This document shows positions 17,964-24,562 of a stretch of DNA of 26,264 bases, piece after piece; within the stretch, counting starts at the first letter, position 1; each line of letters starts with the position of its first letter. The position numbers and the translations under genes are program-made. Origin of the DNA: an uncultured archaeon (GTDB lineage: Archaea; Asgardarchaeota; Lokiarchaeia; Sigyniarchaeales; Promethearchaeaceae); contig CAYRPF010000011.1 of NCBI GenBank assembly GCA_964426185.1, forward strand, positions 31,862 through 58,125, written 5' to 3'. The notes under the pieces are model-generated. The model was not told where the DNA came from. It searched no databases and saw only the letters and a program-made list of their open reading frames with translations.

Positions 17964-19436
17964 TCACTGTTTATATCCTAAAAATGCAAGATATCCCAAG
18001 TAGGTGGCATAGACATCCGCAATATGCACGATTTCATATGGGCTGTGCATATTTAGCACAGGTGTGCCTACATCGATTACTTCACAATTGAACGTCTCTG
18101 CCATATATTTAGCTATGGTTCCGCCACCTCCCTTATCAACTTCTCCCAGCTGGCCCATTTGGAAGGGAACTTCCGCTTTGGAAAAGATTTGGCGCATATA
18201 GGCTACAGTTTCAGCATTAGCATCGTTAGCACTGTATTTCCCTCCAGAGCCTGTATATTTGACTAAAGTTATACCTTTGCCTAAAATGGCAGCATTTTGA
18301 ATGTCATGAACTGTTTTAAAGGCAGGATCTACCGCTGCGGACACATCAGAACTTACCATAAAACTATTGCTTAGAACGACATTAAGATTGGATATATTTT
18401 CAGAAATGCCAGTTCGCACCATAAGATCATTCATTACAAAATAAAGCCATTTAGATTCCGCTCCAGTGGCACCATTACTGCCGGTTTCTTCCTTGTCAAA
18501 AAAGCATACTACTGATGTATAAGCAGGCACTTTCTTCAAATCAAATAAGGCACGAGCACTGGTCCAAGCACACACACCATCGTCATGACCAGCAGCTCCA
18601 ATCATGCTTTTATCAAAACCAATATATCTGGGTGGAATGCCTGATACCAAGTTTAATTCTGCCGACAGAAAGTCTTCTTCCAAAATACCATATTTTTCGT
18701 TAAGAATCTGTAAAATATTAAGTTTAAATTTCTCTTTCGCTTTTTTATCCGCTACCGGAAGCCCACCTGCCAATACGGTCATTTCTTCTGCTTTGATAAC
18801 TTCCCGCATGGTCCGTTTGGCTTGGACGGTGGATGAAAGATGAATTAGTAAGTCTGGAATAGTAAAAACCGGATCTTCAGCATCACGGCCCACATCGATT
18901 TCTACTTTAGTGCCGTCTTTTTTAATGATAATTCCCGTTAAATGCAATGGAACGGTTGTCCACTGATATTTTTTAATCCCCCCATAATAATGCGTTTTGA
19001 ACAAACCTACACCAGCTTGTTTGTCATCAACTAATGGATTTACCCGAAGATCTAAGCGGGGCGTATCAATATGAGAGCCGATTAAATGAGTCTTTTCTGT
19101 CATAGATTGAGTCCCGACAACTACCAGAGCAACATTTTTGTGTTTATTTACATAGTAAATTTTATCCCCTGGTTGAAGTGTATTTATCTCTTTTCCCAAT
19201 TCTACTCGTTTGAAGCCAAATTTTTGGGCTTGTTTAACGGCCCAATTAGTTCGTTCTCTTTCAGTTCTAGCATTGCGTAAAAATTCCAGATAATCTTCAG
19301 AAAAATCTCTAACTTGTCTTTTTTGTTCATCAGTGTATTTTTCCCACGCAAATGGAATTTTATGGGTTAACTTTCCTTCTAAAGAAGAATCGCTCGGTTC
19401 TAAGTCGGAAGCTTCCAATTCATTTTTAGAGTTCAT
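17964..19436 (-). CDS. M18-family aminopeptidase (ApeA/aminopeptidase I-like)
   Basis: SHIDTPRL, THYYGGIKKYQW, GHDD, DKEETGS, SSDV, KYTGSGGKY, GGGGTIA, MHSPYE. Confidence 0.93.
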   Translation of the reverse strand: MNSKNELEASDLEPSDSSLEGKLTHKIPFAWEKYTDEQKRQVRDFSEDYLEFLRNARTERERTNWAVKQAQKFGFKRVELGKEINTLQPGDKIYYVNKHKNVALVVVGTQSMTEKTHLIGSHIDTPRLDLRVNPLVDDKQAGVGLFKTHYYGGIKKYQWTTVPLHLTGIIIKKDGTKVEIDVGRDAEDPVFTIPDLLIHLSSTVQAKRTMREVIKAEEMTVLAGGLPVADKKAKEKFKLNILQILNEKYGILEEDFLSAELNLVSGIPPRYIGFDKSMIGAAGHDDGVCAWTSARALFDLKKVPAYTSVVCFFDKEETGSNGATGAESKWLYFVMNDLMVRTGISENISNLNVVLSNSFMVSSDVSAAVDPAFKTVHDIQNAAILGKGITLVKYTGSGGKYSANDANAETVAYMRQIFSKAEVPFQMGQLGEVDKGGGGTIAKYMAETFNCEVIDVGTPVLNMHSPYEIVHIADVYATYLGYLAFLGYKQ

Positions 19437-19705
19437 GATAAGTTTGATAGTTTAGCTTCTTTTTTGAAGTTAGGGGTTAGAAAAATGATCCCAAAAAAGC
19501 CACCAAAAAAAGAAGCTTTTTAAAATTAAAAGCTTAACTTTTTATTCCGAGGGAGACCTTTGAATATTATCATTGAAAGTATTGATGGGAATGAGTGGAT
19601 TGCAATTTAAGCATAATTAAATCTTTGATATATTGAGCCCAACTTACCAACGGAGCATTCTTTGTGATGCATTCATCCTATCAACAATATCAACGAGTGG
19701 TAATC

Positions 19706-21172
19706 ATGATACCGAAGAAAATTAAAGAAGGAATTTATCAAGTCGACCCGGAAATGAAAGTCATAAAATATAATGAAAAAATGTATAATTTTACGATGGT
19801 CGTTCCGGCGCGGATTTATGCCAATGACTATCTCATGCAGCACATTCAACAAGATAGGAGTATTGATCAAATTACGAATGTAGCATGTCTTCCAGGAATA
19901 AGAAAACATGTAATTGCCATGTCGGATGCCCATCAAGGCTATGGGTTTTGCATTGGAGGAGTTGCGGCAACTAGTGTGGACGGAGGGGCAATTAGTCCAG
20001 GCGGGGTAGGATATGACATAAATTGTGGCGTCCGTTTACTTCGTACCGGTTTAAATTATTCCGATATTGCCTCCGAACTTCCGGCATTAACCGAATCTCT
20101 ATTTCATCACATTCCCAGTGGATTGGGATCGAAAGGTAAACTCCACATCACTGAAAATGATTTAAATCATGTTTTGGATGAAGGTATTGACTGGGCAATC
20201 AGTAAAGGTTATGGTTTTGAAAAAGATCGCGAATATTGTGAAGATCACGGTAGGGTGGAAGGCGCAGATTCAAGCATTGTGTCAAGTAAAGCAAAAGCCA
20301 GAGGTATTCGGCAATTAGGATCATTAGGATCTGGAAACCATTTTATCGAAATCCAACGGGTCGAAAAGATTTATGATGAAGAAACCGCAAAAATCATGGG
20401 TATCGAGAAAAACCAAGTTACGGTTATGATCCACACGGGATCGCGTGCCATGGGACACCAAATTTGTACTGATTCTTTACAAGAAATTGACCATATGATG
20501 CATCGAGAAAATATTATCCCACCGGATAGAGAATTAGGCTATGTAATATCGGGAACCAAAGAAGCCGATCGTTATTTGGCTCAAATGCGAGCTGCAGCTA
20601 ATTTTGCTTATACAAACCGCCATATTATTATGCATTGGACAAGAGAAGCTTTTAATGAAATCCTGCACATCAATCCCGAACAAATGGAATTGATCTATGA
20701 TGTAGCTCATAATATTCTAAAGGTAGAGGAACATGATGTAGGGGGAGGTAAACGTGAAATGGTAAACGTACATCGTAAAGGTGCCACGCGGGCTTTTCCA
20801 CCCAATCATCCCGATGTTCCCGCAAAATATCGATCTATTGGTCAACCCGTTTTAATTCCAGGTAGTATGGGTACGGCTTCATATTTATGTGTTGGGCAAG
20901 AAAAAGCTATGGATTTAAGTTTTGCCAGTACCGCTCATGGAGGAGGTCGTGAAATGAGCCGGTCAAAGGCCAAACGTAAATTTTACGGAAAAAATATCCA
21001 GCAAGAACTTAATCAAATGGGTATTGCAGTGAAAGCCGCTTCCATGAAGGTCTTGGCAGAAGAAGCCCCCTTGGCATATAAAAACATTGATCAAGTTGTA
21101 AATGTGAGTCACGATTTGGGAATTGTAAGAAAGGTGGCACGATTAGTCCCGATTGGTGTAACCAAAGGTTAG
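19706..21172 (+). CDS. rtcB: RtcB RNA/tRNA-splicing ligase
   Basis: DAHQGYG, GYDINCG, GNHF, HTGSR, VAHN, HRKGATRA, PGSMG, STAHGGGR, EEAP. ATG 19706 (MIPKK) preferred over GTG 19664. Confidence 0.96.
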   Translation: MIPKKIKEGIYQVDPEMKVIKYNEKMYNFTMVVPARIYANDYLMQHIQQDRSIDQITNVACLPGIRKHVIAMSDAHQGYGFCIGGVAATSVDGGAISPGGVGYDINCGVRLLRTGLNYSDIASELPALTESLFHHIPSGLGSKGKLHITENDLNHVLDEGIDWAISKGYGFEKDREYCEDHGRVEGADSSIVSSKAKARGIRQLGSLGSGNHFIEIQRVEKIYDEETAKIMGIEKNQVTVMIHTGSRAMGHQICTDSLQEIDHMMHRENIIPPDRELGYVISGTKEADRYLAQMRAAANFAYTNRHIIMHWTREAFNEILHINPEQMELIYDVAHNILKVEEHDVGGGKREMVNVHRKGATRAFPPNHPDVPAKYRSIGQPVLIPGSMGTASYLCVGQEKAMDLSFASTAHGGGREMSRSKAKRKFYGKNIQQELNQMGIAVKAASMKVLAEEAPLAYKNIDQVVNVSHDLGIVRKVARLVPIGVTKG

Positions 21173-21190: not shown

Positions 21191-21307
21191 CTCGTATTTG
21201 TAGAGAATTTCTATTTTTTCTTCCCTCAAATTGTTCTTAAAGTGCATGAGAAAAAATTTATAAAGATTTATGATAAAAGTATTTACGATAAAAGGAGCTT
21301 TATCATC

Positions 21308-22264
21308 GTGGTTACAATAGCAGATGGAAGATATATTCTTCCCGACAATCTTCTATATTCGAAAACTCAACATGTTTATCTGGATCGTGTCAAAAAAACA
21401 ATTGGACTGGATCAAATCGGTTATGCTTTCCTGAAAAAACCAACTGAATTAGTCATTCTTTCTGAAACATCTTTAAAAATCGGAGAGCCGTTTGCTGTAA
21501 TTACAACGGAAACGAGTATTACCACGTTAAACTCGCCTTGCACTGGAAGTATTGAGTACATTAATCTAGATGCTTTAAAATATATGGAAAATGACACTTA
21601 TTCTGATGGTTTTATCATAAAATTCAAAGAGATCGAGGACATCCAAGAAGACTTGATTACTGGCGCGAATATCGAGCCGTGGGCTAATCATGAAGTCCGC
21701 GCTCTTTTGAAAAATGAGTATTCCTTCAAAATTATTGAAATTGGTGATTCCGCCACCGGAAAGACCGCCATCAAGGTTCGATTTACCGACGATTATTTCA
21801 AGCAAGATCTAAAGACAACACTGGGTGTTGATTTCGGAAGCAAAGAAATTTCTTGCATGTATACCCCCAATGACATACTTTTTTCGGGAACATACCGGTT
21901 TAAAGTAAAAATTAATTTATGGGATGCAGCGGGCCAAGAACATTTTGCTAAAATTAGAGGTATGTATTATCGTGATGCGAAAGGTGCTTTACTGTGTTAT
22001 GATGTGAATAATCCTGTGTCCTTTCAAAATCTGGATAAGTGGCTGCTGGAGTTAGAAGAGAACCTTGGTCGTATTCCAACTCTCCTGGTGGGCAACAAGA
22101 TAGATTTGGAGCGGAAAGTGTCTCGGGCGGATTCATTAGAATATGTGAAAGCGCATGGTTTGTCTGGTTTTGTAGAAGTTTCTGCGAAAACGGGTGAAAA
22201 TGTGGATGAAGCACTGCAACAGCTTGCGATTGAAATCTATAAACGGGAAGAGAATCTTGCTTGA
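21308..22264 (+). CDS. GcvH-like domain fused to a Rab-like small GTPase
   Basis: N-terminus PDNLLYSKTQHVY...TIGL...GEPFAVITTETSITTLNSPCTGSIEYIN...NDTYSDGFIIKF (H-protein pattern). C-terminus GDSATGKT, TLGVDF, WDAAGQE, YYRDA, GNKID, SAKTG. GTG 21308 after AGGAG preferred over 21242. Confidence 0.88.
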   Translation: MVTIADGRYILPDNLLYSKTQHVYLDRVKKTIGLDQIGYAFLKKPTELVILSETSLKIGEPFAVITTETSITTLNSPCTGSIEYINLDALKYMENDTYSDGFIIKFKEIEDIQEDLITGANIEPWANHEVRALLKNEYSFKIIEIGDSATGKTAIKVRFTDDYFKQDLKTTLGVDFGSKEISCMYTPNDILFSGTYRFKVKINLWDAAGQEHFAKIRGMYYRDAKGALLCYDVNNPVSFQNLDKWLLELEENLGRIPTLLVGNKIDLERKVSRADSLEYVKAHGLSGFVEVSAKTGENVDEALQQLAIEIYKREENLA

Positions 22265-22277
22265 TTTATATTCCAGT

Positions 22278-23408
22278 TTATTTCTTCAATAGTTCTTTTT
22301 TTTCTGCAATTTTCAGAAATACAAATTGAAGAATGAAGAATTCAAAAATCGGAGCCAATAATTGAATTTCCGCATTAAAATCAACCAAGATAATGCGTTC
22401 ATTTTTTCGAAGAATTTGGGATACGCCAGGATTATTACTCAAGACAAGAATTTCCCTCGTTCGTTGCAAAATCAAATTAACCAAGCGATATATGGTGCTT
22501 TCATTAGTGGTATGATCTCCAATTAATAAAATAATACGGATATTTTGTGGATGAATTTTTCTCTCTAAAATTTGAAAGGGTCCATGAAAAAAATGAGATA
22601 TATATATACCTTCTGTTAGCAAACGGGTGAAACTCTTTGCATGAAGGGCACCCAATAGTGCTGCAGCCATAGAAGCAGGATCTCGAGCGATAATATATAG
22701 ATTATCAAAATCACTTAAAAATTGAACGATTTGATCAGTTGTGGATATCCAATTTTGTTTATATTCGGTTAAATCGCCAATAAATCTGCTAAATCGCGCT
22801 TGAAGAGTAGTTGATTGGGGTTTTTCTCCAATAATTACACGCGTAGTTAGGTATACCACAAAAATGGTATTGATAAAAGATTTAGAGCCGAGAACAAATT
22901 CATGTGGAATGAAAAGCTGAAAGATGTTTTGAATTGTGGGGGATAAGTAAGTATTCTCATTATTTGTTATTAGCCATATCAAATCAGGATCAACTTTAGT
23001 AAGCCGTAAATGATCCACACAGCTTTTTAAGAATCGAGATTTTCCAGATTTCGAAATAAAAATATACAAAGCACCTTCCGATTCTGATGGAAGCATGTAG
23101 TCAAAAAATTCACTCAACTCTACGCAGTAAAGTGAAAAGGGAATCTTACGCGCCGTTTCCATGAACATCTGGCGGGAAATTTGACTTGCAAAATAACTAT
23201 AGGTATTCCCGATAAAAAATACTTTAGAAATGGAACGTTCTACCACAATTTGCCGTAGTTTTTCAAATTTAGATTCAAATTCTCCATTAAAATAATGATC
23301 TGCACAGGAAGTTAAGCAATCTATCTCATCAAAAAAGTCATCTCTAATTTGTTCAAATGTAAAAGGCCATTGAAAGGAACTTGGAAACGATGAAGGATTT
23401 CGGTTCAC
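22278..23408 (-). CDS. Double-SIS (GlmS isomerase/AgaS-like) protein, degenerate
   Basis: FFIGNTYSYFAS, FISKSGKS, LITNN, GSKSF, GALHAKS, FFHGPFQIL. The GTG start overlaps the upstream TAG by 1 nt. Confidence 0.8.
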   Translation of the reverse strand: MNRNPSSFPSSFQWPFTFEQIRDDFFDEIDCLTSCADHYFNGEFESKFEKLRQIVVERSISKVFFIGNTYSYFASQISRQMFMETARKIPFSLYCVELSEFFDYMLPSESEGALYIFISKSGKSRFLKSCVDHLRLTKVDPDLIWLITNNENTYLSPTIQNIFQLFIPHEFVLGSKSFINTIFVVYLTTRVIIGEKPQSTTLQARFSRFIGDLTEYKQNWISTTDQIVQFLSDFDNLYIIARDPASMAAALLGALHAKSFTRLLTEGIYISHFFHGPFQILERKIHPQNIRIILLIGDHTTNESTIYRLVNLILQRTREILVLSNNPGVSQILRKNERIILVDFNAEIQLLAPIFEFFILQFVFLKIAEKKELLKK

Positions 23409-24562
23409 TATTGAATAACACCTCTGCGTAAAGCTTGATCTAGAAAAAGATAGTTTAAAACTACCATCTCGAAAATGGGTGCCAAAAATGGATTTTGTGT
23501 AGTGTGTTCAAAAACCCATACATTTTTATTAGCTCTTCCTAAAGAAGAAAGCGACCGATTGTTATTTATTAATATTATACGCCCAGATCCTAACTTTTTA
23601 CTGGCTAAATTAATTAGATTAACGGTATCTTCAATGCTTGTTTCATCACTAACCAAGAGAATACATCGAAAAGAATTATCGATTATTTGAAACGGCCCAT
23701 GCAGAAAGAGTCCAAATGAAATTCCTTCTCCAAATAATCGGAGATATGCTTTACAATTTAAAGCCCCTTGATATGCAGTAGATAAACTTGTCCCCTTTGA
23801 GATAAAGTATAGAAAATCATAATCAACACCCAAGAAATCATTTAGGCTGGAAACATGGAATTCCCAATCTTGTTGGTAAAATTTGATTTCAAAAATCATT
23901 TGCCGAATTTCGTCTTCAATTGTTTTTGAAATAATTTCTTGATTCATAAAGGCTCGAGTAATGAAATATAATACTAAAATATCCGCAGGAAATGAATTCG
24001 AGCCGATAACAATTTCATCCCCGCAGAAAATTGGGAAAAAAAAATGGGCTAATGGTTTAAGATTGTCATTATTGGAGACTAAGGCAATTTTACGAATATC
24101 TACATCATATTTTCTCAATTTCTCGATACCTTTATTAATTTGGATAGAACCGGTGCGGGTTACAAATATAAATAGAGAATTTTCATCAAATTTATAGGGG
24201 TGACAGTATGTTATAAATTCATCTGGTTCAAAAATTAAACATTCTCTTGGTTTTACTTGTTTAACTTGAAGAACCGAGGCATCAATTGATGAATTTATAT
24301 AATAATAGGGAATTAAAGAAGCAAAATAATTATAACTATGACCGATCAGGATTAATCGTGAAATGTTGACTGATTCACAGTAGTTACGAAATCGTTGTAG
24401 CATTTCTGCACCCTCCGGCGAAATATAATAGCGGAGACATTGTAACAAAGTACTTGGAATGGTTAAGAACGAATTTAAAGCGTCGGTGAAGAGAATAGTG
24501 ATCACTATTTCATTATTTTGAAAGAATTTAAAAGTTATACAATGAAAATTGGGAAATTGCAA
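23408..24562 (-). CDS. Double-SIS (GlmS isomerase/AgaS-like) protein, degenerate; paralog of the downstream gene
   Basis: LIGHSYNYFAS, FVTRTGS, LVSNN, GSNSF, SKGTSLSTAYQGALNCKA, FLHGPFQIID. The true start is probably about 50-70 nt downstream of the TTG at 24562. Confidence 0.8.
   Translation of the reverse strand: MQFPNFHCITFKFFQNNEIVITILFTDALNSFLTIPSTLLQCLRYYISPEGAEMLQRFRNYCESVNISRLILIGHSYNYFASLIPYYYINSSIDASVLQVKQVKPRECLIFEPDEFITYCHPYKFDENSLFIFVTRTGSIQINKGIEKLRKYDVDIRKIALVSNNDNLKPLAHFFFPIFCGDEIVIGSNSFPADILVLYFITRAFMNQEIISKTIEDEIRQMIFEIKFYQQDWEFHVSSLNDFLGVDYDFLYFISKGTSLSTAYQGALNCKAYLRLFGEGISFGLFLHGPFQIIDNSFRCILLVSDETSIEDTVNLINLASKKLGSGRIILINNNRSLSSLGRANKNVWVFEHTTQNPFLAPIFEMVVLNYLFLDQALRRGVIQ

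Follow-up and report, generated by a model that had tools for sequence, protein, structure and literature searches.

The window we analysed, a stretch of 26,264 nucleotides from an uncultured lokiarchaeon that shares its genus with Ca. Harpocratesius repetitus (82% identity), carries a gene that joins an H-protein-like domain to a Rab-like small GTPase, set among housekeeping genes and a convergent pair of SIS genes:

17964 to 19436: M18 aminopeptidase, a flanking housekeeping gene
19664 to 21172: rtcB, a flanking housekeeping gene upstream of the fusion
21257 to 21264, + strand: TATA-box-like element, about 45 nt upstream of the start
21294 to 21297, + strand: Shine-Dalgarno-like GGAG, 10 nt 5' of the GTG
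21308 to 22264, + strand: GcvH-fold/Rab-like GTPase fusion gene, 318 aa, GTG start
22278 to 23408, - strand: SIS (GlmS-C-like) protein 1, convergent, a conserved neighbour of the family
23408 to 24562, - strand: SIS (GlmS-C-like) protein 2, convergent, 34% identical to the SIS protein directly downstream of the fusion at locus L080
24858 to 26147: cdc6/orc1, a flanking housekeeping gene

The fusion is encoded in a single stop-free frame, as a first-pass annotation of this DNA had proposed. Its GTG start at 21308 is supported by the GGAG, by the TATA-like box and by the homologues, all of which start there. A longer frame of 340 aa from a GTG at 21242 was rejected because of the starts of the homologues and the position of the Shine-Dalgarno-like motif. 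The TATA-like box suggests that the gene may have its own promoter, apart from the upstream rtcB; a sigma-70 promoter scan, a type of scan inappropriate for archaea, gave chance level only. The gene is real and conserved in Asgard archaea. Its full-length homologues number about 100, with identities of 45-89%, and an independently assembled public contig (a single one, whose run may represent the source sample itself or a closely related strain) covers 21252-22392 with two synonymous differences. An assembly chimera or a frameshift was rejected on these two grounds, and the fusion is not unique to this assembly.

The N-terminal part of the protein holds two features:

21308 to 21709, + strand: H-protein-fold (GcvH/LbpA-like) domain, residues 1-134, whose terminal helix links to the G domain
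21512 to 21514, + strand: Thr69, at the lipoyl lysine position; at -3, Thr66 replaces the Glu

Taken alone, this domain remains below threshold in profile searches (Pfam GCV_H, E 0.008; TIGR00527, E 3e-4), with 20.8 bits against a GcvH family cut-off of 115.85. It is recovered by a profile of the fusion family, which retrieves the genome's own GcvH end to end (E 7.8e-8) and the H-proteins of the PDB (E about 2e-7). Its AF2 model (pLDDT 95.3, pTM 0.88) has an H-protein fold: the top 22 Foldseek matches are all H-proteins, and in VIA the H-proteins score Z 16.6-12.8 against Z 6.1 for the next fold, the best match being pea H-protein (Z 16.6, rmsd 2.2 Å over 123 aa). The lipoyl lysine of canonical GcvH aligns with Thr69, in keeping with the earlier observation that it is absent. 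Across 104 homologues the site holds, among others, Asn (24), Gln (19), Arg (17), Lys (12) or Ser (9); the glycine that follows it is kept in 101. The 12 lysine-bearing members are scattered, with 8 changes on the tree, and only one of them has the Glu at -3; family-wide lipoylation was rejected for this reason, and individual lysine-bearing members could still be lipoylated. Together, the H-fold, the loss of the lysine and its scattered presence without the -3 Glu argue for a non-lipoylated H-fold module. This supports the idea, put forward in the first-pass annotation, that a carrier fold has been reused as an interaction module. The analogy with ABITRAM and actin that accompanied it fared worse: neither the PDB and atlas matches nor those of the profiles include anything related to ABITRAM or actin, an absence from hit lists that does not exclude affinity.

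The remainder of the protein is a small GTPase:

21716 to 22246, + strand: Ras-superfamily, Rab-like (RasL) G domain, residues 137-313
21743 to 21766, + strand: G1/P-loop
21818 to 21820, + strand: G2 Thr171, in switch I
21851 to 21895, + strand: interswitch (beta2-beta3) insertion region, 11-12 extra residues
21923 to 21937, + strand: G3, with the catalytic Gln210
22094 to 22105, + strand: G4 (NKxD)
22181 to 22189, + strand: G5 (SAK), followed by about 24 residues with no Cys among them

Pfam Ras matches residues 141-311 at E 1.7e-43 (148 bits, cut-off 21.6), and the closest solved sequences, as well as the closest folds by Foldseek, are Rabs, including the Thorarchaeota Rab 7EZB (E 9e-30). 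The G boxes are complete: the Gly, Lys and Thr of G1, Thr171, the Asp, Gly and Gln210 of G3, the Asn, Lys and Asp of G4 and the Ser and Ala of G5 are invariant in 104/104 homologues, and the residues for GTP binding and hydrolysis read as intact. Conservation across the family is highest in switch I (residues 156-179, 92%), and the interswitch insertion, at 56%, is among the least conserved parts. The interswitch segment is 28 residues long, where most of the genome's small GTPases have 16-17, which corresponds to an insertion of 11-12 residues and agrees with the one first described. The lack of a C-terminal Cys for prenylation also extends to the family, none of the 104 homologues having a Cys in its last 10 residues. 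Some divergent members of the fusion family (P0131, P0132, P0134 and P0138) sit on long branches and have a degenerate G3 in which the catalytic Gln is lost or displaced; they are possibly pseudo-GTPase paralogues. Agreement with the motifs RabF1-F5, reported as close, held in part: measured against what we take to be the eukaryotic consensus, F1 and F4 are identical at 4/5 positions, whereas F2, F3 and F5 are weaker or partial. Published phylogeny finds no Asgard sequence that is specifically sister to eukaryotic Rabs (10.1101/2024.02.28.582541), which is why the name of the GTPase should read 'Rab-like (RasL)' rather than 'Rab'. As to how the two halves sit together, the full-length model reaches a pTM of 0.58 against 0.88 for the N-domain alone, with no confident domain packing; the H-fold expected from the first reading is recovered by structure prediction, and a packing of the N-domain on the switch regions, raised there as a question, is not.

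The same architecture occurs in 14 of the 161 Lokiarchaeia genomes: the source genome, 10 of the 13 others of its family, and one genome from each of three further families, of which one genome is from the Helarchaeales. None was found in other Asgard classes (301 genomes searched). The only match among the 135 genomes of family f2 (in genome G222) has gene surroundings of the Promethearchaeaceae type and could reflect misbinning or transfer, and the label 'Hodarchaeota' of P0118 was not accepted as a wider range, because the protein aligns closely with those of Helarchaeales. Several genomes carry more than one copy: the source genome has a paralogue on another contig (C38), and the two cultured Lokiarchaeia, MK-D1 and L. 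ossiferum, have two and three copies. At locus L014 (980-3075) two fusion paralogues are divergently oriented, 174 bp apart. A patchy distribution like this one would suit an N-domain that is largely vestigial, a structural appendage acquired by chance fusion to what is otherwise an ordinary Rab-like GTPase. Most of its invariant residues are fold positions common to stand-alone carriers, and it is conserved at 63% against 70-92% for the G domain. However, the domain is intact in more than 100 sequences from several families, after repeated duplication, and the full-length matches include no close GTPase-only form, all of which makes a vestigial domain very improbable.

Contrary to the initial belief that this architecture had not been described, a supplementary alignment of Tran et al. 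2024 (Commun Biol 7:273, PMC10933270) labels two MK-D1 proteins, WP_147661646.1 and WP_147662223.1, as 'GCVHG'. The main text of that paper does not mention them, and in it we found no mention of the missing lysine, the origin, the neighbours or the function; the non-subscription literature on Asgard GTPases with glycine cleavage or lipoyl, and on ABITRAM with glycine cleavage, held nothing relevant beyond this supplement. The architecture is already catalogued, not characterised. Our analysis adds to it the probable ancestry of the carrier domain (a lysine-bearing type, at several loci Hdr-linked, not a canonical H protein) and the hdr neighbourhood of fusion loci.

The best non-fused matches to the N-domain are archaeal proteins of 140-150 aa that keep the lysine. 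In a careful tree of 57 rows, the fused domains are monophyletic (100/100). Their sister group (87/92) is a clade of lokiarchaeal proteins whose turn motif reads E-A-G-K-G, and a branch with 98/98 support parts the fused domains from canonical GcvH. An AU test did not reject the grouping of fused domains with canonical GcvH (p 0.30), so that the careful tree alone is no proof of ancestry. The base of a larger tree of 189 rows is not resolved, and the carrier trees were built without reference LbpA1 and LbpA2 sequences. Sequence motifs agree with the careful tree: the helix-cap motif G-x-[DSN]-x-[ILV]-G is found in 27/29 rows of fused domains, in 2/3 of the sister clade and in 0/13 of the canonical-like group, and a W-x-x-x-E tail in 24/29, 3/3 and 1/13, respectively. 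The N-terminal start and the glycine after the lysine site are also common to the fused domains and the E-A-G-K-G clade, unlike canonical GcvH. Moreover, one Helarchaeales genome (G304) contains two fusions as well as the lysine-bearing parent type, the latter beside hdrC-hdrB, a co-occurrence that is consistent with duplication and then fusion. We conclude with moderate confidence that the N-domain would have arisen from a duplicated lysine-bearing lokiarchaeal carrier, of the E-A-G-K-G type and in an LbpA-like context, that was then fused to a GTPase.

The stand-alone relatives are found in several contexts. Some lie beside hdrC/hdrB(/hdrA) (L113, L118, L122 and L124), others in DsrE-DsrH-TusA-carrier-hdrC(B) clusters (L092 and L100) and about nine beside a lipoate ligase, while L116, L117, L119-L121, L126 and L127 have no such context; within the sister clade, 3 of about 10 stand-alones adjoin hdr genes. 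At two of these loci (L118:6143-7144 and L122:6038-7057), from genomes of one Lokiarchaeia family (G304 of the Helarchaeales, and G305), a pair of adjacent but different lysine-bearing H-like carriers adjoins hdrC/hdrB(/hdrA). Separately, stand-alone lysine-bearing carriers occur in several Asgard lineages near a gene that by eye is SelD-like (selenophosphate synthetase; L116, L120, L099, L101 and L104).

The first-pass annotation saw a possible link with glycine and lipoate enzymes. One form of it would be an apo-H-protein decoy that binds the P, T or L proteins of glycine cleavage, or lipoate ligase or synthase, and so couples glycine and lipoate metabolism to the switch. The fold is that of a complete H-protein, genes for GcvT, GcvH, GcvP and a homologue of lipoate ligase are present in the genome, many stand-alone relatives adjoin lipoate ligases, and the AU test is compatible with it. 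Yet no fusion locus has gcv or ligase genes beside it within the flanks compared, and the canonical GcvT-GcvH-GcvP of the source genome is on a different contig, C63. Both the lysine and the -3 Glu are lost, the motifs place the fused domain away from canonical GcvH and close to the Hdr/ligase-associated carrier clade, and it carries a net charge near -7, compared with -15 to -21 in canonical archaeal GcvH, where canonical ligases read an acidic surface (10.64898/2026.10.01.755906). These observations weaken the glycine-cleavage link, and leave a decoy quite improbable.

The neighbourhoods of 29 distinct fusion loci point elsewhere. In 10 of them hdr genes lie within 5 kb, on three branches (Promethearchaeaceae paralogue B, including the C38 copy; L080/L148; and L017), and at L013 they are 5.9 kb away; the genomes concerned are related, which gives three or four independent branches at most. 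As a background, 2.5% of the source genome is within 5 kb of an hdr gene, and 2 of its 35 GTPases are hdr-close, one being the fusion paralogue. Paralogue B (C38; WP_147662223 in MK-D1) abuts hdrC-hdrB-hdrA-mvhD-ferredoxin, and in MK-D1 dsrE, dsrH and tusA are found further upstream. No hdr linkage was seen at the window gene, nor at the four Helarchaeales loci and L149 (the branch taken as outgroup is among these five).

SIS genes are within 5 kb of 13 of the 29 loci. In the window they form a tandem of translationally coupled paralogues (22278-24562, - strand), a pair that is conserved beside the fusion and cdc6; indeed, the order rtcB-fusion-SIS-SIS-cdc6 is kept in related genera. Their match to GlmS is far under the cut-off (E about 1e-12), and the pair is possibly a non-catalytic sugar-phosphate sensor. 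At the deep-branching loci L080 and L148 one strand reads hdr...fdx, fusion, SIS, with a single SIS gene at each, co-directional, 27-75 bp downstream, and homologous to the window pair (26%, 34%). The presence of Hdr upstream and SIS downstream suggests that this is the ancestral order, and the simplest history would be that a block of the order hdr-fusion-(longin)-SIS existed in the ancestor and was divided when it duplicated, the window copy keeping the SIS side. It could be argued that these degenerate SIS proteins are themselves the partners, as two sugar-phosphate sensors that relay carbon status by way of the GTPase: their linkage reaches from the window to L080/L148 and persists despite the change of orientation. 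Nevertheless, the pair is convergent in the window and in most relatives, and hence not co-transcribed with the fusion; it is missing near paralogue B and in Helarchaeales; and the recruitment of an H-fold would be left unexplained. We find SIS partners improbable.

A third kind of neighbour is a conserved gene of about 170 aa, longin-like, that adjoins the fusion in 11/29 loci, usually co-directional and 10-110 bp downstream. It lies directly 3' of paralogue B (L136:5800-6318, - strand, which is C38:7799-8317 of the source genome, G000; L077:7975-8484) and is duplicated in some genomes. Its longin identity is a lead: the atlas gives a match (0.89) with a cluster in which Fuz_longin_1 accounts for 22%, one member hits the Pfam model Fuz_longin_1 at E 0.032, and no match was obtained among PDB sequences. 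A complex prediction for the window protein with the C38 longin-like protein scored 0.02, against a mark of 0.32, and counts neither way. This neighbour makes it conceivable that the fusion is a self-contained signalling module, in which the H-fold would be an intramolecular regulator or a targeting domain with a membrane or cytoskeletal partner, the longin-like protein its GEF, and the Hdr linkage an inherited position. Longin and roadblock domains commonly partner Asgard GTPases (PMC10933270), and the strong conservation of switch I would fit such a role. But the longin-like family is present in 119 of the 161 Lokiarchaeia genomes, mostly without the fusion, and its longin call counts as a lead and nothing firmer. 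Also, no fixed packing of the two domains is predicted, there is no membrane anchor, and the searches gave nothing related to ABITRAM or actin. For these reasons we judge a self-contained module to be rather unlikely.

Taken together, the origin of the domain and the genes around the fusions lean towards redox metabolism (heterodisulfide reductase) more than towards membrane traffic. The reading we favour, still tentatively, is that the protein may work as a soluble GTP switch, docked on Hdr redox and sulfur machinery by its cofactor-less carrier domain. A lysine-bearing carrier encoded beside hdrCB(A) or lipoate ligases would have been duplicated and then joined to a GTPase, losing the swinging arm and keeping the binding surface. 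The product would be a non-prenylated Rab-like (RasL) GTP/GDP switch with the H-fold as its docking module. Speculatively, the N-domain would park the GTPase on the cytoplasmic HdrABC-MvhD-ferredoxin or TusA-DsrE redox and sulfur-relay machinery, and the GTP cycle would report or regulate the redox or energy state, with the co-encoded longin-like protein as a candidate GEF. The window copy would be the paralogue that remained with the SIS genes after duplication, and its partner may have shifted. Docking of this kind is plausible because carriers are recognised via distributed surface features, beyond the sequence around the lysine (10.64898/2026.10.01.755906), and because other H-folds are fused to receiver and Fe-S domains.

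In favour of Hdr docking speak the ten hdr-linked fusion loci on three branches and the hdr-adjacent stand-alone relatives. Against it, the window gene, the Helarchaeales and L149 have no hdr linkage, only 3 of about 10 sister stand-alones are hdr-adjacent, and the AU test leaves p at 0.30. The synteny itself may be chromosomal inertia from the position of the parent gene, and the adjacent Hdr is of the canonical HdrABC-MvhD type, whereas LbpA is proven for sHdr. A fuller circuit, in which the cofactor-less lipoyl carrier physically wires a eukaryote-type Rab-like switch to Hdr electron bifurcation and sulfur relay, and in which a longin-like GEF and sugar-phosphate sensors of the SIS type provide the inputs, is conceivable but doubtful.

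To our knowledge, Asgard archaea have dozens of small GTPases in cells without known internal membranes. The fusion family brings a built-in clue, a metabolic carrier fold, to the role of one of them, and it comes with named candidate partners: HdrABC-MvhD, the longin-like protein and the SIS pair. Its presence in both cultured Lokiarchaeia means that the notion of early Rab-like switches serving metabolism, not trafficking, is testable with recombinant proteins. If the Hdr-wired reading were true, cultured Asgard archaea would hold a GTPase circuit for metabolic state built from redox-enzyme parts, a functional analogue of nutrient sensing by Rag and Rheb. The impact is limited in that the architecture is catalogued, was found in only part of one Asgard class and has its candidate partner named from gene context; we also know of no eukaryotic descendant of the fusion.

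Compared with known GTPases, the fusion shares G1-G5, the catalytic Gln and RabF-like motifs with Asgard RasL proteins and with eukaryotic Rab1, Rab11 and Rab27, and it resembles the GTPases of MK-D1 in that none of these has a C-terminal Cys. It differs from Rabs by its N-terminal H-fold domain and by the interswitch insertion of 11-12 aa, although Rab27 aligns to its interswitch over a span of equal length, and it lacks the hypervariable prenylated tail of eukaryotic Rabs. With GcvH (PF01597, TIGR00527) the fused domain has the full fold in common (Z 13-17), but not the lipoyl lysine or the gcv operon; it stays below the cut-offs and has other diagnostic motifs.

LbpA, a homologue of GcvH, is indispensable for sHdr systems and is encoded with hdr, tusA and dsrE (PMC6067878), a context shared by the nearest stand-alone relatives of the fused domain; among the fusions, paralogue B and some relatives have it (with Hdr of the HdrABC type) and the window gene does not. 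LbpA has a strictly conserved lysine and usually two terminal Cys, both missing from the fused domain, and it goes with sHdr, in contrast to the HdrABC-MvhD type that neighbours the fusions. The N-domain is, on these sequence features, not to be filed as LbpA. The carrier pairs of L118 and L122 are reminiscent of LbpA1/LbpA2 pairs, but Hdr there is of the canonical type. The H-fold has been reused in larger or regulatory proteins elsewhere, as in NF045810 (GcvH_rel_desulf) and in fusions with receiver domains and TusA; these lysine-less or fused GcvH-like domains form separate clades in the tree, and none is fused to a GTPase. Further combinations seen in our searches are P0276 (445 aa), a fusion of receiver, GCV_H and 4Fe-4S dicluster domains, and P0141 (1391 aa), in which GCV_H occurs three times in a row with FAD/Fe-S oxidoreductase domains joined to it. 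The source genome also encodes a second GcvH fusion (C15:31259-32173, - strand), which keeps the lysine and has an N-terminal Cys-containing domain, DGC-like by eye. Closest of all are the 'GCVHG' proteins of MK-D1, a member of another genus: WP_147661646.1 and WP_147662223.1 have the same architecture and length as the window protein, with 66% and 65% identity over 100% of the length, and the former sits in the same neighbourhood of rtcB, SIS pair and cdc6.
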